A DNA stretch of 64,000 nt from Candidatus Falkowbacteria bacterium UBA1359 (lineage in GTDB: Bacteria; Patescibacteriota; Patescibacteriia; Patescibacteriales; Patescibacteriaceae), in NCBI GenBank assembly GCA_002306385.1, contig DBRV01000003.1, forward strand, positions 861-64,860. Reading direction: 5' to 3'. This document shows, one piece after another, positions 1 to 57,527 of this stretch; positions within the stretch are counted from its first letter, which is position 1, and each line of letters opens with the position of its first letter. Under the pieces are notes generated by a model. The model did not search any database and was not told where the DNA came from. It saw only the letters and a program-made list of their open reading frames with translations. Both the position numbers and the translations under genes were made by a program.

Positions 1-1313
1 TCGTAATAAGAATTTAGCCCACTATCCAAATGAAAAACGTGTTCTCCCTGCAGAGCTTTACGAACATAAAGGGGTAATTCACCTTTACTTTCGGCAATCT
101 GTTCTTGCGCTTGCATATTAATTTTACCGACATTTAAAGCCCAATCTTCTTGATATTTAAGTAATATCTCCTTGTGAGGAACATCCTCTGGAATGCGACC
201 ATTATACTCTGTGGCGAGAACCCTAATCCATGATAATAATTCAGGGGTCGATGGCCTTTTTTGTATCTTTGGATTTTCGTGATACTGATAAAAAACAGAA
301 ATGGCATAATTTAATAATTCTTTTTGTATCCCGGGAAAATTTAACTCAACAATTTGAGATAAATCAGACCGGCTTGGATAATCAACATAGTGATATAAAC
401 TTCGCCTGCGGAATGATGGCGGAATTTTATCTGAATCTTCTGTATTTGTTGTGACTATAATTCTTAAATTCTTTTTATCACCCTTTACAACAGTACCCGT
501 TTCATTAATAGTAAAGGTTAAATTTTCAATTTCATCTAAGATTCCTGTCATTAACTCTTCACGACCTTTTTCAATCTCATCTATAAGTAAATATATTTTT
601 TTACCTTTTCCCGATTGATAAATAGCCTCTCCTAATGGCCCTAGATCAATATAATTAAGATAGTCTAAGTCTTTAGATGTTTCACCCAGCTCAACAACAG
701 CTCTCATTTTAGCTTTAAATGCCATATATCCTTTATCTGTTGTGGGGTCTATCTCGCCACTAACTATTTTTTGCTTCCAAAACATAGCCTCATCTTTGAT
801 TTCTTCTGGCACCTGGGCCCGAGACTGGGCATCACTTAATCTTCTTACATCATCAACACTATATAATAAATCCTGGGCTCTCATTGTGTCCTTAACCCGA
901 ATATGAATAAGGGCAACATCTTTACCCTCTTGTAGCTCTTGGCCAACCTCTGAATAAGCCCATTGCGTTTTACCAGTGCCAGGTTCACCCTCTAAGATAA
1001 CAGAATTACAATCACCGCTCTCTGCCAAAACATCTAAAACCTCCTTAACGGCCTGCAGTTCCGCAGACACCACATATGGCCTCTCCATTCTTTCATTTAT
1101 TTCCGTCAAACTATGCCGCATCCTATCAAGTTGCTCCTCTTTTTTACCAATAGTTTTTATTATATTTTCTTTCCCCCTAGACTCTTCGGTAATCATGCTT
1201 AATTTTTCTTCAAGGAAGTCAATTTTTGCCAACAAACTAGACAATATAGACTTAAAAACTTCGGGGTCTTCAACTTCATCAATTTGTGGCTGTAATTCAA
1301 AATTTTTCCTCAT
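1..1313 (-). CDS. AAA+ ATPase, MoxR/AAA_5-like, with coiled-coil N-terminus; partial (C-terminus beyond window edge)
   Basis: Absent from the ORF track because it has no stop in the window. My minus-strand translation starts at ATG 1313-1311: MRKNFELQPQIDEVEDPE... It shows VILEGEPGTGKT (Walker A), IYLLIDEIEKGREELMTGILDEIENLTFTI (Walker B plus MoxR-like helix), LRIIVTTN (sensor 1) and PPSFRRRSLYHYVDYP. The frame stays open to nt 3. Confidence 0.75.
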   Translation of the reverse strand, partial: MRKNFELQPQIDEVEDPEVFKSILSSLLAKIDFLEEKLSMITEESRGKENIIKTIGKKEEQLDRMRHSLTEINERMERPYVVSAELQAVKEVLDVLAESGDCNSVILEGEPGTGKTQWAYSEVGQELQEGKDVALIHIRVKDTMRAQDLLYSVDDVRRLSDAQSRAQVPEEIKDEAMFWKQKIVSGEIDPTTDKGYMAFKAKMRAVVELGETSKDLDYLNYIDLGPLGEAIYQSGKGKKIYLLIDEIEKGREELMTGILDEIENLTFTINETGTVVKGDKKNLRIIVTTNTEDSDKIPPSFRRRSLYHYVDYPSRSDLSQIVELNFPGIQKELLNYAISVFYQYHENPKIQKRPSTPELLSWIRVLATEYNGRIPEDVPHKEILLKYQEDWALNVGKINMQAQEQIAESKGELPLYVRKALQGEHVFHLDSGLNSYY

Positions 1314-1325
1314 AAAATTATAAGT

Positions 1326-1777: not shown

Positions 1778-2770
1778 TTACTTCTTGTATTTATCCATAT
1801 AGATATGAGCAAGTTGACCGCAACATAACCCCGCCTCTTCACATTTAGCAATGGTGTCAACGACAACATTGAGGCCTAACGCGCGAATTTCGTCTCCTCT
1901 CTGCTTAAGGAGATCGAAATTACGATAATTCGCGAAGGCCTTAAGGCCATCCCGATCACCGCGTGTAGTCTTGTTGAGAGGAATCAGCTTAATTGCGAAT
2001 TTTGCGGGATCCAACCCCTTGAGTTTTTCAGGATCAAGCTCCCAGCCATCGCCACAGATGAAGTTCAGCGTTATCGTCCTATCTGTGACAGTGTGCTGAT
2101 CAAAGAATTCGACAAGACGAACAAGTGGAACAACCTTAGCTCCGTGAAAGAGCCAATGTCTTTCTTCTTCGCTTGTTGAATTAATTGACAGCTGAAGATG
2201 TAGGAATCCTCCGAATACTTCTTCCTTGACCCGCAGGACTTCCTCCAAAATTTCAAATGGCGAAGCTCCGTGAATTGTCGTGTCGGGCACGATGGAGTTG
2301 TAGCAAGGCAGGAATCGAAAATCACCCCAGGGGTGATTCTTGAGATATCGAATCGCCTCCAACACATTACACCAGTTTAGGGCTGGCTCACCCATTCGGG
2401 CGAATCCGATTTTCGCCTTCTTGGTTTTTTGAACATGAGGCGATTCTCGAATGATCAAGTCGATTTGCTCGATGATCTGCTCTGCACTTAAATTACCACG
2501 AAATGGCAGCAGAGGCACATCGCAGAAACGACATTGATAGCCACAACCAAGCTGAGTCGAAACGGTCATCAGCCACTTTTCTTCATAAGGAACAAGGTTT
2601 GCCCGAATCAGCTCTATATCATCGGTGACGAGAACTTCGGGATGTTCCTTGCCAGTTACGTCCTGCATCTCCGTGCATTCCACGATGTATGGATCACCTT
2701 TTTCATCTGTTGTTTCACAGATGAAAATTCTGCCACTTGGCAGCTCGACGACATCCTTTAAGGTTATCAT
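1778..2770 (-). CDS. radical SAM enzyme, RlmN/Cfr-like core without the N-terminal domain
   Basis: CX3CX2C motif GCGYQCRFC (C76/C80/C83, nt 2522-2545). MGEPALNW, LQLSINSTSEEER, IKLIPLNK and C-terminal CCGQLA are collinear with E. coli RlmN MGEPLLN, AISLHAPNDEIR, INLIPWNP and ACGQLA, as I recall that sequence. Confidence 0.75.
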   Translation of the reverse strand: MITLKDVVELPSGRIFICETTDEKGDPYIVECTEMQDVTGKEHPEVLVTDDIELIRANLVPYEEKWLMTVSTQLGCGYQCRFCDVPLLPFRGNLSAEQIIEQIDLIIRESPHVQKTKKAKIGFARMGEPALNWCNVLEAIRYLKNHPWGDFRFLPCYNSIVPDTTIHGASPFEILEEVLRVKEEVFGGFLHLQLSINSTSEEERHWLFHGAKVVPLVRLVEFFDQHTVTDRTITLNFICGDGWELDPEKLKGLDPAKFAIKLIPLNKTTRGDRDGLKAFANYRNFDLLKQRGDEIRALGLNVVVDTIAKCEEAGLCCGQLAHIYMDKYKK

Positions 2771-3495
2771 TGCTTTTTCTCCTTTCTTTGGAATTTTTGC
2801 GCCAACTTTGTGGCGTCGTAATCTTCGTAGACCAAATTGTCGGGCATGAAATAATAGTTATAGTCGCCATCAGCTAAAAATCTAACTTGCGGAAATTCGT
2901 CTTGAAGCGTCTGTCGAATTTTATTGAAATCGGCAACAACACCTCTGCATTCCCGCACTGTCAGTTTGGGAACAAACGAGTAGAACCGAATCCACTCGCG
3001 AATCCAATCTGAGCTCTGGCCGACATAAACCACTACTACTCGTGCACGAGAGAATCTCAGAAGTCGCGTCAGTTCTTCCCTGCGAACCTCTGAAATCGTG
3101 TGTGTGGACACCACAACCTGGTGGAATCCGAGAAGTTCAATCATTGCCAGTTTATCAAGCAAATCCTCGTTTGTGTGGAGATCAACTTGACGATTATGCT
3201 TGTGGCAGATAGCAACGATTGTTTCGAGCGTTGAGAAATTCTCCTTTAGCTCGAACAAGGGGTCGCCACCGCCAGAAACAGAAACCTTCGGCCCAGTAAA
3301 TCTTCCGATACACCAATCTAGATAATCCCAATCAATTGTTTGTTTCTCCCGCTTCAGCCGATGATTAGCAAAAGCACAGAAAAAACATCGTTTTGCACAA
3401 CCGAAATTTGTAACAATGGAAAAATTCCTTTCCTGACAACATAAAGTGCTGTCGGATTCAAATTTCTCCTTTCGTACCTGCGTTATCATGGTCAT
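2767..3495 (-). CDS. small radical SAM protein (242 aa), activase/QueE-sized
   Basis: CX3CX2C motif GCAKRCFFC (C33/C37/C40, nt 3376-3399). SVSGGGDPL is a glycine-rich SAM motif. ATGA overlap with the downstream gene at 2767-2770. SD GGAGG at 3497-3501 favours the third-codon ATG (3489) as the true start. Confidence 0.7.
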   Translation of the reverse strand: MTMITQVRKEKFESDSTLCCQERNFSIVTNFGCAKRCFFCAFANHRLKREKQTIDWDYLDWCIGRFTGPKVSVSGGGDPLFELKENFSTLETIVAICHKHNRQVDLHTNEDLLDKLAMIELLGFHQVVVSTHTISEVRREELTRLLRFSRARVVVVYVGQSSDWIREWIRFYSFVPKLTVRECRGVVADFNKIRQTLQDEFPQVRFLADGDYNYYFMPDNLVYEDYDATKLAQKFQRKEKKQ

Positions 3496-3572
3496 TCCTC
3501 CTTTTTATTTGAATTATCAATGTACAAAACCCCTGATAGGTTTATCAACAATAATACAAAATGTTCGAAATG

Positions 3573-4118
3573 TCAATCTTTGCAGACCTCGCTAACGATC
3601 TTTCTCAAATATGAGAAACGAGAATGAATCTTGGGATCAGTTACCTTTTGCCAAGCGGATTCATCTCCATTTAAAAGATAATCACGTAACTGAGTGGCGC
3701 TAATGCCGTCGCGTTCGACTTTTTCAAACTTCATATCATAATTTTTATACAACCACTCTAATTTTGTCTCGCTTCCACCATAGACAACTTCGGGAATTTT
3801 CCCAGTATAAAATTGACAGAAAGAAACTATCCAATTACCCCATTCGCGATATTCCCCCTCGGTCTTAGGAATACCATGCAGGTCTGGGAAAAACCCAATT
3901 TTTAATCGTTTATTATCACCATAGATTCTTTTTATCAAATCTATCCTATCCAGAACGTTGAAAGGATTTCTTTTGCTGCCATACGATTGGCATTCACCAA
4001 CAAGCAAAATTGCTTCTTCGCACTCAGAAAGCATTTTATCGATGACTTTCTGATGGCCAAGTTGAATGTGTTGAAATCGACCATGAAATAACCCAAATTT
4101 GTATTTGTATGATCCCAT
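3573..4118 (-). CDS. cytidylyltransferase-fold nucleotidyltransferase, NadM/NadR (NMN adenylyltransferase)-like
   Basis: N-terminal GLFHGRFQHIQLGH matches the GRFQPxHxGH HIGH-type motif. ISATQLRDYL matches the ISxTxxR motif. SD GAGGGGG at 4127-4133 lies 8 nt from the ATG. Confidence 0.65.
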   Translation of the reverse strand: MGSYKYKFGLFHGRFQHIQLGHQKVIDKMLSECEEAILLVGECQSYGSKRNPFNVLDRIDLIKRIYGDNKRLKIGFFPDLHGIPKTEGEYREWGNWIVSFCQFYTGKIPEVVYGGSETKLEWLYKNYDMKFEKVERDGISATQLRDYLLNGDESAWQKVTDPKIHSRFSYLRKIVSEVCKD

Positions 4119-4861: not shown

Positions 4862-4950
4862 TGGCGGAGGAGAAGGGATTCGAACCCTTGATGCCATATA
4901 GGCATAGCGCTTTTCGAGAGCGCCCGATTCAACCACTCTCGCACTCCTCC
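4862..4950 (-). tRNA. tRNA-Ser(CGA)
   Basis: Hand fold: acceptor GGAGGAG/CTCCTCC, anticodon stem GCGCT/AGCGC, loop CTCGAAA, long variable arm TGCC..GGCA, T-arm AAGGG-TTCGAAT-CCCTT, discriminator G, encoded CCA. Confidence 0.9.
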
Positions 4951-4965
4951 CTTAAGTCAACTGAT

Positions 4966-5697
4966 TCATTGTTTATCTTGAATTAGTTGTTTTAATCTGT
5001 CAATCTCTGCCGTATTAAGCGACCGAACCGCCCCAATGGGCAGACGACCCAACTTTAAAGGACCAAGTCCAGTTCTTTTTAGGTCAATCACTTCATAGCC
5101 TGCTAATTTTAGCAATAAACGAATCTGTCTCTTTTGACCTTGCTCTAAAATAATTTCTAACCGATCACCAGCTAATTGACGGCTTATTTTAGCTCTAGCC
5201 AAACTTTGGCCGTCATATAACTTATGACCCTGGGACAAAAATGTCTGTAGTTTTATAAAATTAGCAGAAGTAATCCCTGGTCTAACAGTGACCTCATAAA
5301 TCTTAGGGTGAGTAAAGCGAGGGTGGGTCAATTTAGCTGCTAAAATTCCATCATTGGTTAAAAGAACTAAGCCATGGCTATTTTTATCTAAACGGCCAGC
5401 CACAAAAAGCCGCCCCGGATAATTCACTAACTCAAAAATATTTTTTTCATGAGGCAATTGCTTATTAGTACAAGTATAGCCTACCGGCTTATTAACCATG
5501 AAATAAACCGGAGCCGGTTCCTGATTAGCTATTGGGCGACCATCAACCTTAATAATTGTGTGAGGGTTAATAATGATCTCCCCTAAATGAGCGGGCTGGT
5601 CATCCACGGTAACTCGTCCGGCTCTAATTAAAGATTCGGCTTGTCGTCTGGACCAAGGGCCATGACTGGCTAAATATTTAGTTAATTGCTGTTTCAT
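4966..5697 (-). CDS. pseudouridine synthase, RsuA/RluB family (S4 domain plus catalytic domain)
   Basis: S4-like N-terminus (LTKYLASHGPWSRRQAESLIRAGRVTVD), then VAGRLDKNSHGLVLLTNDG carrying the catalytic Asp motif. Confidence 0.8.
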   Translation of the reverse strand: MKQQLTKYLASHGPWSRRQAESLIRAGRVTVDDQPAHLGEIIINPHTIIKVDGRPIANQEPAPVYFMVNKPVGYTCTNKQLPHEKNIFELVNYPGRLFVAGRLDKNSHGLVLLTNDGILAAKLTHPRFTHPKIYEVTVRPGITSANFIKLQTFLSQGHKLYDGQSLARAKISRQLAGDRLEIILEQGQKRQIRLLLKLAGYEVIDLKRTGLGPLKLGRLPIGAVRSLNTAEIDRLKQLIQDKQ

Positions 5698-5699
5698 GG

Positions 5700-7046
5700 C
5701 TATTTGCTTTTTAACTTCCCCCTTAATTGCCAGTTAAGCCAACCAGTAAGCGCTAGGCCTAGCCAAAATAATACTGCTAAATCATTTTTAAAATAAGGCA
5801 CATCTACGAGACCATGGATAAAAGCAGCCAGCCAAGCCCCAAATAATCCCCAATTAAGCCAAGCTAAATTATTTTTAAGATGATAACCACAAAAATTGCG
5901 ACAATTAATAAATAGAGCCTTAAACCATAGCCACATAAAAATTATCATCCCCAGTAGCCCCAATTCACTCCAAAAATTTAAGATAATATTGTGAGGATAG
6001 AGGTATATCTCTACCGGCTGCCAGACTGGTTTTTCTGACTTATCTACTGGCTTAAGCCAAATACCTGTTTCATGATATGGCTTCACACTAGATTGATAAT
6101 TAGCAAGACCAGCCCCAGTAAATAATCGGCCATCTCGTAACATCTCCCAAGTTTCTTGCCATTGGGCTCGACGGATTTGGCCTGATTCATCGGCTAAAGA
6201 AATTTTCCTATAAATTCCAGGGTTCTGTAAAGTAACAATAACCAAAAGAGCAGTCAAAATAATAGACACCACCTTACCACCACGGCTAGAAAGAAAAATC
6301 ATAACTATAATAGCTATAATTAATCCAACTATAGCGCCTTCGGAATGGGCCCAATAAAGAGCCAGCCAACTCAAAATAATACTAGCGGCTAGTAAAATAT
6401 TAGACCAAGTAAATAGTTTAGACCGTTCTTTTCTTAAATAAATAAGGCAACCCAAAAGTGCTAAGCTAACTGGGGCCACAAAGAGACCAATAGCATTGGG
6501 GTAGCCAAAAAAAGAAGTAGCCCGCCGACCAGTAACTGACGCCCACTCAGGATTAAAAATGAGCTGGCCGGTAAAATACTGGTAGCCGGCTAATAAACTA
6601 ATTAAGGTTACACTACCCGCTAGAAACAATAGGGCATTAACAATGTCTTGAGGTTTTTGCCAAACATTAAAGGCAATAACAAAAACTAAAATTGGCTCAA
6701 TGAAATAAGCCTTCCAAATTCCCAGGGCTGGAAGACTATAGCCACTAATAGCAACGGCTATCCAGGCAATAATTAATATGATAATTATCTCCCAAGTAAA
6801 AGGATAAGGATGCCAATTCTTGGGTTTACGGATAATATTCTTCCAGGGCCGAGGCCAAGACTTAATGAGCCAAACCATGGTGGTAATTACAATGAATTCT
6901 TCTAAGACAGTAGAAGGCACAAAACCCACCTTAAAACGCAATAAATAAACAGGTAATAAACCAAATAGCAAAGATAGAGCTAATTTTAAGTTACTCCATG
7001 ACAAAATAAGCCACAAAACACCGACGGCTAAAATTAACCAGCTCAT
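5700..7046 (-). CDS. O-antigen ligase-like (Wzy_C) polytopic membrane protein; possible PglL/TfpO-type O-oligosaccharyltransferase
   Basis: More than 10 predicted TM helices. Motifs HSEGAIVGL, a RRAQWQETWEMLRDGRLFTGAGLANYQ loop and YPHNIILNFWSELGLLGMIIF are typical of Wzy_C. 4-nt overlap with the upstream gene. Confidence 0.6.
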   Translation of the reverse strand: MSWLILAVGVLWLILSWSNLKLALSLLFGLLPVYLLRFKVGFVPSTVLEEFIVITTMVWLIKSWPRPWKNIIRKPKNWHPYPFTWEIIIILIIAWIAVAISGYSLPALGIWKAYFIEPILVFVIAFNVWQKPQDIVNALLFLAGSVTLISLLAGYQYFTGQLIFNPEWASVTGRRATSFFGYPNAIGLFVAPVSLALLGCLIYLRKERSKLFTWSNILLAASIILSWLALYWAHSEGAIVGLIIAIIVMIFLSSRGGKVVSIILTALLVIVTLQNPGIYRKISLADESGQIRRAQWQETWEMLRDGRLFTGAGLANYQSSVKPYHETGIWLKPVDKSEKPVWQPVEIYLYPHNIILNFWSELGLLGMIIFMWLWFKALFINCRNFCGYHLKNNLAWLNWGLFGAWLAAFIHGLVDVPYFKNDLAVLFWLGLALTGWLNWQLRGKLKSK

Positions 7047-7541: not shown

Positions 7542-10500
7542 TTAACCAGCGACTCGCCAAATTTCTTCTAAACTTGTCTCGCCATTAGCTGCTTTAATTA
7601 AACCATCATGGACCATTAGCAGTGAGCCTTGTTTAATGGCCAATTTCTCAAGTTCAGCTTCAGTAGTCAAGGGTTGCTGAATTAATTTTTGCATTTCTGG
7701 AGTAATAATAATAACTTCATAAATACCTAGACGGCCATTATAGCCAATACCACGACACTGAGGACAACCAACTGGTCCATAAAACTGAGGCTTATCCGGC
7801 AACTTTAAGTCTGGCCGCTTACGTAAAAACTCCCAAGCTGGTTCAGCTTGTTCCCAAATATCTGCTGATGGAGTAATGGGTTTTTTACAGTAAGGACACA
7901 AACGTCTAACTAACCGCTGGCCAATAGAGCACTCCAGAGCACTAGCCAGCATCGGCCGGTCAACACCCAGTCCAGCAAAACGAGCAATGGCGCTAGCCGC
8001 ACTATTAGCGTGAATAGTAGATAGAACTAAATGACCAGTTAAACTTGCCTCAATGGCCGTTTTAGCTGTCTCAGGGTCACGAATCTCGCCAATCATAATA
8101 ATATTAGGATTCTGACGTACCAAAGAACGAAGCGCTGCGGCAAAAGTATAGCCACTGGCAGTATCAATTTGAGTTTGCATTACTCCGTCAAGATGATATT
8201 CAATTGGATCTTCAACAGAGATAATTTTAACTTCAGGGGTATTTAATTTTTTAAGTAAAGCATAAAGAGTAGTAGTTTTACCTGCACCGGTAGGACCAGT
8301 AGTAATAATAATACCTTTAGTCTTATGAATAGATTTGTCAATAAGGGATAAAGAGACATCGCGGATGCCTAGATCAGACAAGTCTAAACTAATAGATTGA
8401 CTGGACAGTAAACGGATGACTACAGTTTCTCCATAACCACCAGTAATTAAAGAAACACGACAGTCCATCCGCTCTTGCGGCAAAATCATGCTAAAACGAC
8501 CATCAAAAGTAGGTTGTTTAACGCTTAATGGCAAGCCAATTAAATTTTTAATTTCCCCAATTAATGGAACATAATGCTCCGCACCTAAAGTAACAATATC
8601 ATATAAGATGCCGTCAAGACGATAACGAATTTTTACACCACCCTCAATAGGGTCAATATGAACATCGGCGGCTTTACTGGCAATAGCGCCAGCCATTATG
8701 GCGGTGAGCATCTCACTGGTTGGTTTATTGGCTAATAATGTACCTGCCTGATTTATGTCTTTAGCTATGGCCTCACCAAATTGTAAATCCGCCTCTTTAA
8801 TAGTTAACCCGCGCCCCAGGGTCTGGGAGACAACAATATCATATAAGTCATCAATATAATCCGTCTTGCCCACTACCCTCAAAACTTCTTCCAGTGAAGT
8901 CTGGCCATCAAGCATTTTTAAGATTCCGTCTTGGAGCATAGTAACCATCCCATCTTCAATAGCTTGCCGCATTACCTTAAACGAAGGCGCTCCTTCGTTA
9001 AGCAAAACCTTCATCGGTTCGGTCATGGTAAAAATTTCAAAAATACCAACCCGCCCCTTATAACCAAAACCCGAACAATGCGGGCAGCCTGGCCCTGCTT
9101 TATAGAATACTGGTAATTCTTTAGGCACATCTATATTAGCCTTAGGCGAAATAACTGCTAAAATTTTATTAATTTGCTTCCGTTCTTCTTCGGTTGGTTC
9201 ATGGACCTGTCGACAGTAGGGACATAATTTGCGAACTAAACGCTGGCCAATAACAGCATTAATAGCTGGCGCTAGTTGATAGGGCTGCACCCCCAAATCA
9301 ATTAACCGGGGCAGTACACCAGCAGCATCATTAGTATGAAGAGTAGAAAATACTAGATGACCAGTCAGACTAGCCTGAATGGCAATATTTGCAGTATCAG
9401 CATCACGAATCTCCCCGACCATAATAATATTAGGATCCTGCCGTAAAATTGACTTTAAACCATTAGCAAAAGTGTAGCCTCGGCTTTCATCAACTTGACT
9501 TTGGTTAATTCCCTCCAGCTCATACTCAATGGGGTCCTCCAGGGTAATAATCTTAACGTCCGGAGAGTTTAATTTATTCAGTATAGCATATAGGGTGGTC
9601 GTCTTGCCTGATCCAGTGGGACCAGTAGTTAAAATAAGACCATTAGGTTTAGCCATCTGCTGTTCTAATATGGCCCGGACTGCTGGCCGCATCCCTAAAC
9701 TATCTAGAGGCAAAATAGCTGACTCAGGCCGCAGTAATTTTAAAACAACACTTTCACCATAAGCTGTCGGTAAAAATGAAGCCCTAACAGCTATTTTTTC
9801 TTTAGGGAGAAAAATATCAAAACGGCCATCCTGTGGCTTATTTTCTACATTTATCTTCACCCTGGCCACAACTTTAAGACGGGCTAGGACTCTCTTCCAA
9901 TCAGCTTTAGGAAGAGAGGCTACGTGTTGTAAAACTCCGTCTACTCTCATTCTAATTGCCACCTCATTTTCTTCGGCCTCAATATGGACATCACTACTCT
10001 CTGTTTTTAGAGCGGCAGCAATGATTAAAGTCATAATTTGACTTATATTACCTTCTTTTAACCTCTCATTAAGTGACTTAAAATCGCTCAATTCTTCTTG
10101 ATAGCGCACTAAATCAGCTGGACTAATTTCTACACCCTCTAAACGTTTAATCTTGGGTAGAGTGTCATAAACCCTAAGGCCATACCCTAAACTACGGGGG
10201 GAAATCAAATAAAGCTTGCTTTTAACATGATATTGATTTTTTAATTCTTCTATCTTGCGGGTTAGGCGATCACTTGGTTTAGTTGTGCCAATTCTAATAT
10301 TGTCTCCAACATAGTAAAAACAAATAGCCTGCAAGTTTTCAGCCTCTTCTCGACTTAATAAGACAATTGCCTCAGGACTAATGGGAAAATTAGTCAAATC
10401 AATATATGATAACCCCAATTGAGCTGCTTGAGCCGCTACCTCATTTTCGATGGCCTGTTCGCGTAATTCTTGTTCCCGACGTGCCAATTGCGCAGCGGGG

Positions 10501-10571
10501 GAATTTTTTTCTTGTAGTGATTTACTATTTAATAAATCCTCAATGGATAAATTGTCACTTTCTTCTGTCAT
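7542..10571 (-). CDS. tandem-fused GspE/PilB-type secretion ATPase (two complete ATPase modules in one 1009-aa chain)
   Basis: Module 1 (aa 1-568): GSPII-N-like N-terminus, GPTGSGKTTT (nt 9600-9623), IIMVGEIRD, TGHLVFSTLHTND, CPYC..CPHC. Module 2 (aa 569-1009): GPTGAGKTTT (nt 8274-8297), IIMIGEIRD, TGHLVLSTIHANS, CPYC..CPQC. The junction reads VVG|KTDY at 8868. Confidence 0.85.
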   Translation of the reverse strand: MTEESDNLSIEDLLNSKSLQEKNSPAAQLARREQELREQAIENEVAAQAAQLGLSYIDLTNFPISPEAIVLLSREEAENLQAICFYYVGDNIRIGTTKPSDRLTRKIEELKNQYHVKSKLYLISPRSLGYGLRVYDTLPKIKRLEGVEISPADLVRYQEELSDFKSLNERLKEGNISQIMTLIIAAALKTESSDVHIEAEENEVAIRMRVDGVLQHVASLPKADWKRVLARLKVVARVKINVENKPQDGRFDIFLPKEKIAVRASFLPTAYGESVVLKLLRPESAILPLDSLGMRPAVRAILEQQMAKPNGLILTTGPTGSGKTTTLYAILNKLNSPDVKIITLEDPIEYELEGINQSQVDESRGYTFANGLKSILRQDPNIIMVGEIRDADTANIAIQASLTGHLVFSTLHTNDAAGVLPRLIDLGVQPYQLAPAINAVIGQRLVRKLCPYCRQVHEPTEEERKQINKILAVISPKANIDVPKELPVFYKAGPGCPHCSGFGYKGRVGIFEIFTMTEPMKVLLNEGAPSFKVMRQAIEDGMVTMLQDGILKMLDGQTSLEEVLRVVGKTDYIDDLYDIVVSQTLGRGLTIKEADLQFGEAIAKDINQAGTLLANKPTSEMLTAIMAGAIASKAADVHIDPIEGGVKIRYRLDGILYDIVTLGAEHYVPLIGEIKNLIGLPLSVKQPTFDGRFSMILPQERMDCRVSLITGGYGETVVIRLLSSQSISLDLSDLGIRDVSLSLIDKSIHKTKGIIITTGPTGAGKTTTLYALLKKLNTPEVKIISVEDPIEYHLDGVMQTQIDTASGYTFAAALRSLVRQNPNIIMIGEIRDPETAKTAIEASLTGHLVLSTIHANSAASAIARFAGLGVDRPMLASALECSIGQRLVRRLCPYCKKPITPSADIWEQAEPAWEFLRKRPDLKLPDKPQFYGPVGCPQCRGIGYNGRLGIYEVIIITPEMQKLIQQPLTTEAELEKLAIKQGSLLMVHDGLIKAANGETSLEEIWRVAG

Positions 10572-10575
10572 AGAT

Positions 10576-12282
10576 TTAACCTATTTGGTTTTTACGTTCA
10601 TTAACATAGTTAGTCCAATCCTCAACCATATTTACTAAAAACTTAAACGGAGTCTCAATTATAAAATCTAGAAAAAAAACAAAAACGTTAATTTTACTAA
10701 ATTTTTCACTTAAGTATTTACCAACTGAAAGAACTGGCAAGCTAAAAAAGTCAAAAATAGTGCGCCATAAATTTTCTTTTTCTTCAGTAATTTTAAGCTC
10801 ATTGGTAACCTTCTTGATTCGAATGATAAAAAAACTAACAAATACCAAGAAAAATAAGAAAATTAATATACTAACCCAGGTAAAATGAAATATAGTCAGT
10901 AACCAGATAATAGCCCCAAAGGTTATAATAAAAGCTAATCCATATAAGAAATTAAAAATCTTCCTCAAAACACTAGTTTTTTTCTGAGATACCCTTAAAA
11001 TTATTGGTTCTGACCGCTTATATTCTTCAAAAGACAGTTCATTCACTAGTTTAATAATCTTCTCTGTATTATTTTCGTCAGGTACTTTAGTAACTAAAAC
11101 TGAAAAGAACAACAAAGTTGGAGGAAAAAGAATATTAAATAATAGGGCCAACGGTTCAATCTCTGCGCCAAATATCTTATTAGCTGGAATCTCTAGAAGA
11201 ATAACTAAAACACCTTTAGTAATAAAAATATAGATGATACTACGGACAGCGGCTCGCCATAATAATTTTTTAGCTTTAGTATACTTTGTCTCACAAATTT
11301 TCTTAATTTGTCTAGAAAAGGCCTGGGGATCAGTTTTAAAGCTGGTATAAATCCCTACCGGATCTTGGCGTAATAACTCTAATGAAACAGAAACCGCTAC
11401 GGCATAACGGCTAATAATTTTATCAAGTGGCTCAGCAAGCGGGTGTCTTAATTGGCTATTAACAACATTGCGAATTTTCTCAATATTTTTAGCTACCGTT
11501 GGCCAGAGATTCTCAGGTAAATTTTGCCAATCTGCAATATAGTATTTAAATAAAATAAAAGTCAGCATGTCGTCATCTAACTTAGCAAAATTTCGGTTAA
11601 TGGAAAGATAAATTTGAATTGGCAAATCCTTAGCTAGCTCTTGCTGATCAGCTAATTGAATATTTTTAGATAGATATTCATAGAGATTTTTAATAGCTTG
11701 ATTTAATACAGGGTCTTGGCTAAGACGAGCTTCAATTTCGCTAGCTGCTACTGCCAGTAACCAATCCACTAACTGATTATGCTTAGCTATTTCGTCTCTA
11801 ATCTCCCTTAAATCTCTTTTGGTTAAATCCTTACTTATTTCTTTACTTATACTAGGGGCAGCAATATTTTTAATTACCAAATATTTTTTAATAATAACTG
11901 CTACTTCATCAATAAGGCTCAGGGGTAGTTGATTATTTGGCAAATAACCACCACGAATTAATTCTGTTAATAAATGTTCACTAATTTCTGCCGCTTGGCA
12001 CTCTTTAGTATCTCCTTCAATTACGGTTTTGCGTCGTAAAATTCGTTTAATTGCCTCTTTACGGAGCAAATATTCTTCCTTATATTCCACCACATTACGG
12101 ATTTTTTCATAAAAAAAGGCCATGCGGGAAATAACGCTAGAAACCTTAATTTTAGGCTGATCTGATGTATCTTTGACCTGACTATGTTGAGTACGATAAA
12201 TTACTTGCAACAATTGTTTAGTGTTAACATTGGCGGTTAAAGTAAAAGAGGCCTGTTTATGTAACTTAGGATTGAGTATCAT
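10576..12282 (-). CDS. hypothetical membrane protein (about 340-aa cytoplasmic helical N-domain plus about 5 C-terminal TM helices)
   Basis: ORF-track ORF. Its stop lies 4 nt before the tandem ATPase start. Hydrophobic helices from about aa 345. No T2SSF/PilC motifs recognised. Confidence 0.6.
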   Translation of the reverse strand: MILNPKLHKQASFTLTANVNTKQLLQVIYRTQHSQVKDTSDQPKIKVSSVISRMAFFYEKIRNVVEYKEEYLLRKEAIKRILRRKTVIEGDTKECQAAEISEHLLTELIRGGYLPNNQLPLSLIDEVAVIIKKYLVIKNIAAPSISKEISKDLTKRDLREIRDEIAKHNQLVDWLLAVAASEIEARLSQDPVLNQAIKNLYEYLSKNIQLADQQELAKDLPIQIYLSINRNFAKLDDDMLTFILFKYYIADWQNLPENLWPTVAKNIEKIRNVVNSQLRHPLAEPLDKIISRYAVAVSVSLELLRQDPVGIYTSFKTDPQAFSRQIKKICETKYTKAKKLLWRAAVRSIIYIFITKGVLVILLEIPANKIFGAEIEPLALLFNILFPPTLLFFSVLVTKVPDENNTEKIIKLVNELSFEEYKRSEPIILRVSQKKTSVLRKIFNFLYGLAFIITFGAIIWLLTIFHFTWVSILIFLFFLVFVSFFIIRIKKVTNELKITEEKENLWRTIFDFFSLPVLSVGKYLSEKFSKINVFVFFLDFIIETPFKFLVNMVEDWTNYVNERKNQIG

Positions 12283-57426: not shown

Positions 57427-57499
57427 GCGCTCGTAGCTCAGCGGTTAGAGCATCGCTCTTATAAAGCGGGGGTCGATGGTTCAAATCCATCCGGGCGCA
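57427..57499 (+). tRNA. tRNA-Ile(TAT)
   Basis: Hand fold: acceptor GCGCTCG/CGGGCGC, D-arm GCTC-AGCGGTTA-GAGC, anticodon stem TCGCT/AGCGG, loop CTTATAA (anticodon at 57460-57462), T-arm GATGG-TTCAAAT-CCATC, discriminator A. Confidence 0.75.
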
Positions 57500-57527
57500 C
57501 CTAGGCGGGGTATAAATTTTGTTATGG

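Follow-up and report, generated by a model that had tools for sequence, protein, structure and literature searches.

The window analysed here is a 64,000-nt stretch of Candidatus Falkowbacteria bacterium UBA1359 (contig DBRV01000003.1, positions 861 to 64,860 of the forward strand), and the element in question is a three-gene module built around a remote relative of the radical-SAM (S-adenosylmethionine) methylase RlmN. The module genes run head to tail on the minus strand over 1778–4118, in the order nucleotidyltransferase, partner and RlmN-like gene. The RlmN-like gene (1778..2770) encodes a 330-aa enzyme with a [4Fe-4S]/SAM core, a member of what is called below the CC family. The partner gene (2767..3495) encodes a minimal single-cluster radical-SAM enzyme of 242 aa. 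The third gene (3573..4118) encodes a NadM/NMNAT-like HIGH-motif nucleotidyltransferase of 181 aa (HGRFQHIQLGH; PF01467, HxGH, cytidylyltransferase-like superfamily). A tRNA-Ser(CGA) gene on the same strand (4862..4950) flanks the module. The ATG of the RlmN-like gene overlaps the stop codon of the partner gene (ATGA, 2767–2770) and follows a Shine-Dalgarno sequence, AAAGGAG (2779–2785, minus strand), which lies 8 nt upstream inside the 3′-end of the partner gene. The two genes are therefore considered translationally coupled, and the RlmN-like open reading frame (ORF) is not extendable upstream.

The catalytic positions were located by direct reading of the minus-strand codons. The radical-SAM cluster motif C76-x3-C80-x2-C83 (GCGYQCRFC) occupies 2522..2545, with C76 at 2545–2543, C80 at 2533–2531 and C83 at 2524–2522. 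The Thr69 codon, at the position of Cys118 in RlmN, is located at 2566–2564. The Cys156 codon (2303..2305) belongs to an LPC motif that closes a core beta-strand; this family-specific extra Cys faces the 'STSG' region of RlmN in the hhalign profile alignment. The C-terminal loop KC(310)EEAGLC(316)C(317)GQ (1820..1843) is part of the motif AKC(310)EEAGLC(316)C(317)GQLA. C316 is encoded by TGT at 1825–1823 and C317, the equivalent of RlmN C355, by TGC at 1822–1820, and both codons fall inside AKCEEAGLCCGQLA.

RlmN and Cfr, the latter a clinical resistance determinant, are to our knowledge the only characterised class A radical-SAM methylases, and their two-cysteine ping-pong mechanism is textbook knowledge. 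Judged by sequence, the homology of the RlmN-like protein to RlmN and Cfr is real but remote. The protein scored 52.3 bits against TIGR00048 (cut-off 290) and 45.3 bits against CfrAB (cut-off 530), and the RlmN chains in the PDB matched it at E ~1e-6 in HMMER. The HMMER alignment set 'eekwlmTvstqlgc' opposite 'pdrttvCvscqvgc' of 6fz6, and the C118A chains 4pl1 and 5hr6 agreed. The comparison of a 48-sequence profile with E. coli K-12 RlmN in hhalign gave a probability of 97.6% over 257 columns and paired T69 with C118, C317 with C355, C316 with A354, C310 with G348, and C76/C80/C83 with C125/C129/C132. MAFFT gave the same register. The earlier note had read Thr at the C118 position from a hand alignment, and three alignments in one register showed that this alignment was unshifted. 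The Cys-Cys doublet that it had placed at the methyl-carrier position was likewise confirmed, codon by codon. A shifted alignment or a mis-called start is ruled out by the three agreeing alignments together with the ATGA/Shine-Dalgarno start.

The AF2 model of the RlmN-like protein, built with 48 homologues as input, reached a mean predicted local distance difference test (pLDDT) of 93 and a predicted template modelling (TM) score of 0.91; the C-terminal loop (pLDDT 67–84) is its less confident part. Foldseek identified the RlmN structures 6fz6, 3rfa and 5hr6 as the closest PDB folds (TM 0.6–0.66, E 2.5e-14 to 1e-10), whereas the next-best radical-SAM folds stayed below TM 0.5. The protein shares with RlmN and Cfr the radical-SAM core, the GCxxxCxFC cluster context, the MGEP, S-x-N/H and LIPxN motifs, and the C-terminal CGQLA with the carrier Cys in the same register. 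Methylation of Cys317 is a predicted likeness, and the model makes RlmN/Cfr the best structural match (TM 0.62–0.66). The protein differs in lacking the helical N-domain, in bearing Thr for Cys118 and Arg for the Gly before MGEP, in the extra C156, C310 and C316, and in a score far below the TIGR00048 cut-off.

The Pfam search found no match for the RlmN N-terminal domain in the RlmN-like protein, only Radical_SAM. In the MAFFT alignment the gap ahead of the Thr69/Cys118 position is ~49 residues and corresponds to the helical RlmN segment ~25–65. The beta-strand extension before the core is retained and strongly conserved (LPSGRIF...E.TEMRDV.GK). The earlier claim of a missing N-terminal domain therefore stood for the helical part, whereas its figure of roughly 100 aa was too high. 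The protein is acidic, with a net charge of −11 and a pI of 5.4; net charge averages −2 in the CC family, compared with +2 in the core of E. coli RlmN. This charge evidence points weakly away from an RNA substrate.

At least 400 homologues came up when 5.8 billion proteins were searched, and all were ~320–350 aa long. Profile matches among 1.84 billion cluster representatives numbered 4,961 at E ≤ 1e-3, 985 at E ≤ 1e-10 and 56 at E ≤ 1e-30. Conservation was counted over 121 sequences, namely the window protein and its best 120 homologues, in which the cluster motif is invariant. C156 was present in 121/121, C316 and C317 in 120/121 each, and T69, C310 and H191 in 119/121 each. C310 is missing in the diverged members L080, P0152 and P0154. 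C316 and C310 are specific to the CC family, and the residue at position 156 varies in the sister subfamilies described below.

All short relatives carry W66, a non-Cys residue at 69 (T/I/N/M/V/G/D/A/S) and Arg125 (ARMGEP), whereas the Cys69-bearing sequences carry Gly125 (GMGEP) and, at ~300–355 aa, are mostly longer. The neighbour-joining tree (p-distance, 80 sequences, 100 bootstraps), which is crude at ~25% identity and contains a small canonical sample, separated the ten Cys69-bearing sequences, E. coli RlmN included, from all others in 99/100 bootstraps. The window protein lies on the side opposite to RlmN. Of the checks proposed earlier, the alignments kept Thr at the C118 position and the tree split off the clade without C118. 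The CC-doublet family was monophyletic in 98/100 bootstraps of the same tree.

Two large sister subfamilies hold only four conserved Cys, the three cluster ligands and the C355 equivalent. One is the 'TCGN-type' (phrog_24834), with at least 3,940 relatives including Bacteroides phage Versailles; the other is the cellular 'NCGQ-type'. Because the sisters hold these four Cys only, the loss of the resolving Cys is read as ancestral to the whole clade and C316, C310 and C156 as a later addition in the CC family. These comparisons place the RlmN-like protein in an offshoot of RlmN/Cfr that no longer has the helical RNA-binding N-domain or Cys118 but has kept the core and the Cys355 equivalent. A relative, Arno18 orf59, lacks the C-terminal Cys segment altogether.

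The phrog_24834 profile matched the window protein at 119 bits over residues 49–318, compared with 801 bits for Versailles and 366 bits for P0327. The phrog_24834 family, typified by the Versailles protein (WAK79139.1), resembles the window protein in W66, the non-Cys residue at 69, R125, a single Cys in the CG motif, similar length and phage carriage. However, identity to phrog_24834 is ~30%, and this group has no CC doublet, C156, C310 or adjacent partner gene. The two are assigned on these features to related but separate subfamilies. The NCGQ-type (P0178, P0183, L089) belongs to the same clade, has neither C118 nor the N-domain, often has C156, and has a gene context that would suggest a small-molecule substrate. 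It differs from the CC family in its cellular spread, in having no CC doublet, and in its partners, a flavoprotein and a hydrolase with no second radical-SAM enzyme.

Three kinds of fusion were found in the wider clade. The radical-SAM domain is joined to a QueT-type transporter component and a 5′-methylthioadenosine/S-adenosylhomocysteine (MTA/SAH) nucleosidase in P0176 and P0200, to an isochorismatase-family hydrolase in P0178, P0191 and P0217, and to a thioredoxin-reductase-like flavoprotein in P0183 and P0238. The locus L089:4396-6972 shows the operon form, with isochorismatase, flavoprotein and radical-SAM genes. These fused domains look like small-molecule accessories, for import, by-product clearance and electron supply, rather than accessories of an RNA enzyme. 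A fused MTA/SAH nucleosidase would suit an enzyme that gives off both SAH and 5′-deoxyadenosine, as class A methylases do.

Two members of the wider set had unusual gene structures. The family member at L068:6735-8789 (IMGVR_UViG_3300042259_000194, a 394-kb viral contig) is 684 aa long and contains an intein-like insert of ~345 aa (...CQFC|LVPG...VANHN|CDVAPL...) exactly at the third CxxxCxxC cysteine. Inteins usually target essential catalytic sites. In L086, Kehishuvirus sp. 'tikkala' (crAss-like, OQ198717.1), the RlmN-like gene is split (4962-5750 and 5753-5884). The 262-aa ORF stops before the C-terminal loop, and the next ORF of 43 aa encodes ...GYDYGVAIATEAEIKAQAACGQLASILENQE, the methyl-carrier Cys motif alone. 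True splitting of the gene, a frameshift or a sequencing error could each explain this. Upstream in L086, beyond one hypothetical ORF, the second gene is of the SPFH/band-7 type, and band-7 genes also lie near the L005 family members.

The gene neighbourhoods of 83 loci were compared after ORF calling and BLASTP clustering. The partner family adjoins the RlmN-like gene in 77 of the 83, in either gene order, and the exceptions are mostly contig ends. The partner carries the motifs (I/V)TNFGCxxxCx(Y/F)C, SGGGDPL and DxHT and a C-terminal DYNxYFMPDN, with no conserved Cys beyond the cluster motif. Its AF2 model (pLDDT 86) has a generic core like that of viperin or the SuiB catalytic domain (TM ~0.6). 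Sequence and fold searches gave the partner generic radical-SAM similarity only (SuiB, viperin, PflA) and no specific family. The sister subfamilies have no partner gene; the partner therefore co-occurs with the CC/C156/H191 signature. In 35 related gut-phage loci (L017–L075), a GmhB-like HAD phosphatase (DxDxT, 142 aa; phrog_1238) lies between the two radical-SAM genes, for example at L017:7550-7978. This phrog is labelled 'phosphoheptose isomerase' but looks GmhB-like. Subsets of the gut-phage loci have SIR2, YpsA/SLOG or a further 295-aa radical-SAM gene (phrog_16999) nearby.

The third gene of the module points to nicotinamide adenine dinucleotide (NAD) metabolism. The window nucleotidyltransferase scored 31 bits against PF01467 (cut-off 21), and its best NCBIfam models are NadM-type NMNATs, at 51–53 bits and below their cut-offs of 127–397. 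A nucleotidyltransferase is a separate neighbour gene in the window, L001-3 and L076. In P0131, P0132, P0143 and P0147 it forms the N-terminal part of a fusion with the partner, and L056 (a phage contig) and L078 also encode a fusion of the two. The partners with these fusions are only 28–53% identical to each other. In L096 the order is NrtR-like Nudix regulator, NadB (472 bits, cut-off 452.75), NadA (425 bits, cut-off 294), transferase::partner fusion, RlmN-like gene, NAD kinase and a C-terminal fragment of NAPRTase. L091 has NadA, the fusion, the RlmN-like gene and NAD kinase in this order. L001-3 additionally have a gene for a B12-binding radical-SAM protein and, in divergent orientation, one for an NrtR-type Nudix regulator, and Nudix genes also stand beside or near the radical-SAM pair in L076 and L082. 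No nadC was found in the stretches of nadB-nadA operons that carry the module, all of them on short contigs. A virus-wide NAD survey reported that every NadM-carrying phage also has NadV (PMC9503650); unlike these phages, the window and L076 have NadM-like and Nudix genes without a NadV-type phosphoribosyltransferase. The link of the module to NAD or nucleotide metabolism is, on balance, probably real.

Some of these loci had further features. In L096, ~900 nt between the RlmN-like gene and NAD kinase (7577-8490) contain no ORF of 60 aa or more and gave no Rfam match, and the NAPRTase fragment is a 68-aa ORF at 9376-9582; both may be decayed genes. In L001 (1-17041 of the 284-kb contig ERZ27247924 k141_630728), the B12-binding radical-SAM protein of 409 aa is accompanied by a 355-aa protein without assignment. 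The L001 module lies between two serine-recombinase genes, and the same stretch contains a CBASS-like pair (CD-NTase and Cap15), an S24 peptidase repressor and a LOOT RNA (RF03000, 80 bits). A role as a defence system was rejected: PADLOC-DB v2 gave no match for the three module proteins, and the position of L001 beside a CBASS operon in a recombinase-flanked island is no general pattern. A riboswitch or other RNA element was rejected as well, as Rfam returned only tRNAs and the L001 LOOT RNA for the module and its relatives.

The CC family is mainly carried by phages. The pattern scan found 69 loci in IMG/VR, mostly on viral contigs of 90–400 kb, and the same scan found eight in 185,579 species genomes (one genome per species). 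Most of the eight are contigs of metagenome-assembled genomes, and some are clearly phage-like. Among large contigs that carry homologues, L004 (289 kb) encodes gyrase/topoisomerase, SSB and an SNF2 helicase, and L005 (154 kb) encodes RtcB, DNA methylases and HNH endonucleases. The family also occurs in Saccharibacteria chromosomes. Cultured phages hold only distant relatives (≤33% identity), and the best structural matches in BFVD were the 'COG0820' protein A0A6J5RTK8 of an uncultured Caudovirales and a protein of Pseudomonas phage 201phi2-1. The earlier note had allowed that this architecture might be the normal housekeeping RlmN of its lineage. The counts of eight species genomes against 69 viral loci rule out a housekeeping RlmN of a reduced-genome lineage or of any other. 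RlmN is a universal housekeeping gene, whereas the window enzyme is of a phage-borne, NAD-linked type with an obligate second radical-SAM partner. The RlmN-like protein is very probably not a housekeeping rRNA/tRNA methylase. The database label of the homologues, '23S rRNA (adenine2503-C2)-methyltransferase', is an unsupported transfer and probably wrong.

Among cellular relatives, L076 is the closest (86% identity). It has these three genes and a Nudix gene, and its module is also directly beside a tRNA, with flanking genes different from those of the window. The GC content of the window is ~0.37 and reaches 0.432 over 2001–4000, the top 2-kb bin. Because of this high GC, the tRNA neighbour and the other surroundings of the L076 module, the window module was probably acquired horizontally.

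The anatomy of the protein, its conservation, the clade structure, the gene pairing, the fusions and the NAD-operon context were observed directly. The explanation that we consider best, and to which we give an even chance, is a three-part module that acts on a pyridine or adenine nucleotide through RlmN-like methyl-Cys chemistry resolved without Cys118. The earlier note had proposed either that the second Cys of the doublet resolves the adduct or that the enzyme does not work by RlmN ping-pong methylation of rRNA/tRNA and uses a small molecule or other substrate. The small-molecule branch is favoured, by association, because of the partner, the NadM-like adjacency and fusion, the nad operons, and the transporter, nucleosidase and isochorismatase fusions of relatives. 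C316 as resolver is possible for the CC family but cannot be the general solution, because the sister subfamilies lack any second conserved non-cluster Cys.

In the proposed mechanism, the substrate would be a free NAD-family nucleotide, namely nicotinamide mononucleotide (NMN), nicotinic acid mononucleotide (NaMN), nicotinic acid adenine dinucleotide (NaAD) or NAD, or their adenine moiety, and not rRNA or tRNA. One SAM would methylate Cys317. A second SAM would be cleaved at the C76/C80/C83 cluster, giving a 5′-deoxyadenosyl radical that would take a hydrogen from the S-methyl group. The thiomethylene radical would then add to a ring carbon that is poor in electrons, in the pyridinium ring or at C2 or C8 of adenine. 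The pyridinium ring and adenine C2 and C8 are, chemically, good acceptors for a nucleophilic radical. The adduct would be resolved without Cys118, and candidates for this step are C316, C156 (with H191) and the partner, which could generate a second 5′-deoxyadenosyl radical. The nucleotidyltransferase would finally make or use the dinucleotide form. Phages would use the radical-SAM pair during infection to produce or remodel nucleotides of the NAD type.

Several points weigh against this explanation. All that is proposed on function, from the type of substrate through the methyl-Cys chemistry to the role in biology, depends on gene context. The substrate of the nucleotidyltransferase is not certain, its scores being below the NMNAT cut-offs. 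No nucleotidyltransferase was found within 8 kb in most phage loci, which have the two radical-SAM genes only. Modules inside NAD operons were seen in a small number of related cellular lineages, with 58–74% identity to the window protein, and one ancestral insertion could account for them. The sister subfamilies manage with one non-cluster Cys, so the retained Cys could donate a hydrogen atom instead of carrying a methyl group. Finally, some phage relatives lie near RNA-repair genes, RtcB in L005 and, beside a TCGN-type gene, an RNA ligase in L098, which fits an RNA substrate.

The RNA-repair genes lead to the first alternative, an RNA adenine C-methylase (tRNA A37 or 23S A2503) of phages and a few reduced-genome bacteria, in which the loss of the RNA-binding domain would be made good by the partner or another factor and that of Cys118 by C316 or C156. 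In its favour, the only characterised homologues are RlmN and Cfr, the CGQLA carrier motif and the beta-extension before the core are kept, and tRNA or RNA-repair genes lie near some members, including a tRNA cluster in Arno18 besides the RtcB and RNA ligase genes. However, the clade-wide loss of the helical N-domain and C118, the acidic net charge, and a partner that shows a bare radical-SAM core with no nucleic-acid-binding domain all argue against it. The NadM-like fusions and NAD operons are not explained by an RNA role, and relatives are fused to transporter, nucleosidase and isochorismatase domains. We regard this alternative as unlikely.

The lone non-cluster Cys of the sister subfamilies is also an argument for a non-methylase. 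Here the RlmN scaffold would serve a different radical reaction, with a nucleobase, nucleoside or nucleotide as substrate; the enzyme could, for example, be a lyase, isomerase, decarboxylase or C-C/C-N bond former, with Cys317 as hydrogen donor or thiyl radical. The two radical-SAM enzymes would act one after the other and might stand in for the phosphoribosyltransferase step that the NAD operon lacks. A hydrogen donor fits one conserved non-cluster Cys better than a two-Cys ping-pong does, and Arno18 orf59 and similar proteins have no C-terminal Cys segment at all. The lack of nadC in the visible operon stretches and of NadV beside the NadM-like and Nudix genes of the window and L076 would suit it too, but the absence of nadC rests on short contigs and not on whole genomes. 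The CGQ motif in exact RlmN register argues for retained methyl-Cys chemistry, and the MTA/SAH nucleosidase fused to one relative clears SAH and 5′-deoxyadenosine, the products of a two-SAM methylase. This alternative, too, is improbable.

A bolder reading, which we hold only as a tentative proposal, is that the two radical-SAM enzymes and the NadM-like transferase form a new NAD route. This would be either a phosphoribosyltransferase-free route to NMN or NaMN and to NAD, replacing NadC or NadV in nadB-nadA operons and phages, or the synthesis of a carbon-methylated NAD analogue. With either version, phages would counter NAD-depleting bacterial immunity. NAD depletion is a major antiphage strategy. 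If true, either version would give the first class-A-type radical-SAM enzyme on a free nucleotide, with Cys118-independent resolution, and the phage-encoded NAD-linked pathway would be of interest to phage biologists and enzymologists.

Hypermodification of phage DNA bases as protection from restriction is very improbable. The family is mainly phage-borne, and DNA methylases, a topoisomerase and a QueD-like PTPS lie near some loci, but no association with DNA-modification genes is conserved across loci. The family also occurs in chromosomal NAD operons and Saccharibacteria chromosomes, and the nucleotidyltransferase coupling points to free nucleotides. The weakest alternative, that C156, C310, C316 and C317 bind an auxiliary Fe-S cluster for sulfur insertion or substrate binding, draws on four extra conserved Cys near the barrel top and in the C-terminal loop, but it is scarcely credible given the loss of C310 in L080, P0152 and P0154, the poor suitability of adjacent Cys-Cys as co-ligands of one cluster, the place of C317 within the RlmN methyl-carrier motif and the absence of any extra Cys from the sister subfamilies.

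A link to 7-deazaguanine or queuosine was rejected, since the QueD-like PTPS lies beside the pair in L004 only and the QueT fusions are found in distant relatives only. A system similar by description is the queuine lyase QueL, a radical-SAM enzyme from Clostridioides difficile (Yuan et al. 2019, via PMC11130926). As far as that account describes it, QueL acts on a free purine-like base and is encoded with a transporter and a nucleosidase, which resembles the fusion of the window protein's relatives to QueT and a nucleosidase. QueL (Q186P0) is listed under the generic IPR006638 only.

NAD metabolism is a known battleground of phages and hosts (PMC13464706, PMC9503650). The described NAD reconstitution pathways (NARPs) consist of Adps and Namat (NARP1), NadV/Nampt and NadM/Nmnat (NARP2), and PnuC-like and NadR-like proteins (NARP3) (PMC13464706). 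The module resembles them in being phage-borne and in having a NadM-like adenylyltransferase with Nudix genes nearby. It differs in using two radical-SAM enzymes instead, and its production of NAD would be an analogy. None of the pairs Adps+Namat, NadV+NadM or PnuC+NadR was found in the module or its relatives; of these enzymes, the module has the NadM-like nucleotidyltransferase only and no NadV, Adps, Namat, PnuC or NadR. The two phage NAD papers do not mention radical-SAM enzymes, and full-text literature searches found no description of the CC family or of a radical-SAM link to NAD synthesis. The window protein falls outside every curated family: it is below the Pfam gathering score and has no specific NCBIfam model, and its only PHROG is the unknown-function family of the sister group.

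The scaffold derives from RlmN, but its catalytic residues, partner and context are new, and it could prove to belong to a new pathway. A clade of thousands of members, mostly viral, has kept the carrier Cys and dispensed with the resolving Cys and the RNA-binding domain. This raises the questions of whether the adduct is resolved in another way or the chemistry is different, and of why large phages carry the enzyme.

Other features of the window were noted outside the module. A putative MoxR/McrB-type AAA+ ATPase ORF (1-1323, minus strand; GEPGTGKT..., identified by eye) runs off the window start, with a 60-aa ORF ahead of it at 1326-1508. The 1009-aa ORF at 7542-10571 (minus strand) looks like a GspE/PilB-type secretion ATPase duplicated in tandem. 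It has two Walker-A modules, 'GPTGSGKTT' and 'GPTGAGKTT', and is followed by a 568-aa ORF at 10576-12282. The window contains eight tRNA genes. One of them, at 57427-57501 (plus strand), is a tRNA-Ile with a UAU anticodon, which is uncommon in bacteria, and it adjoins a tRNA-Val(GAC) gene.

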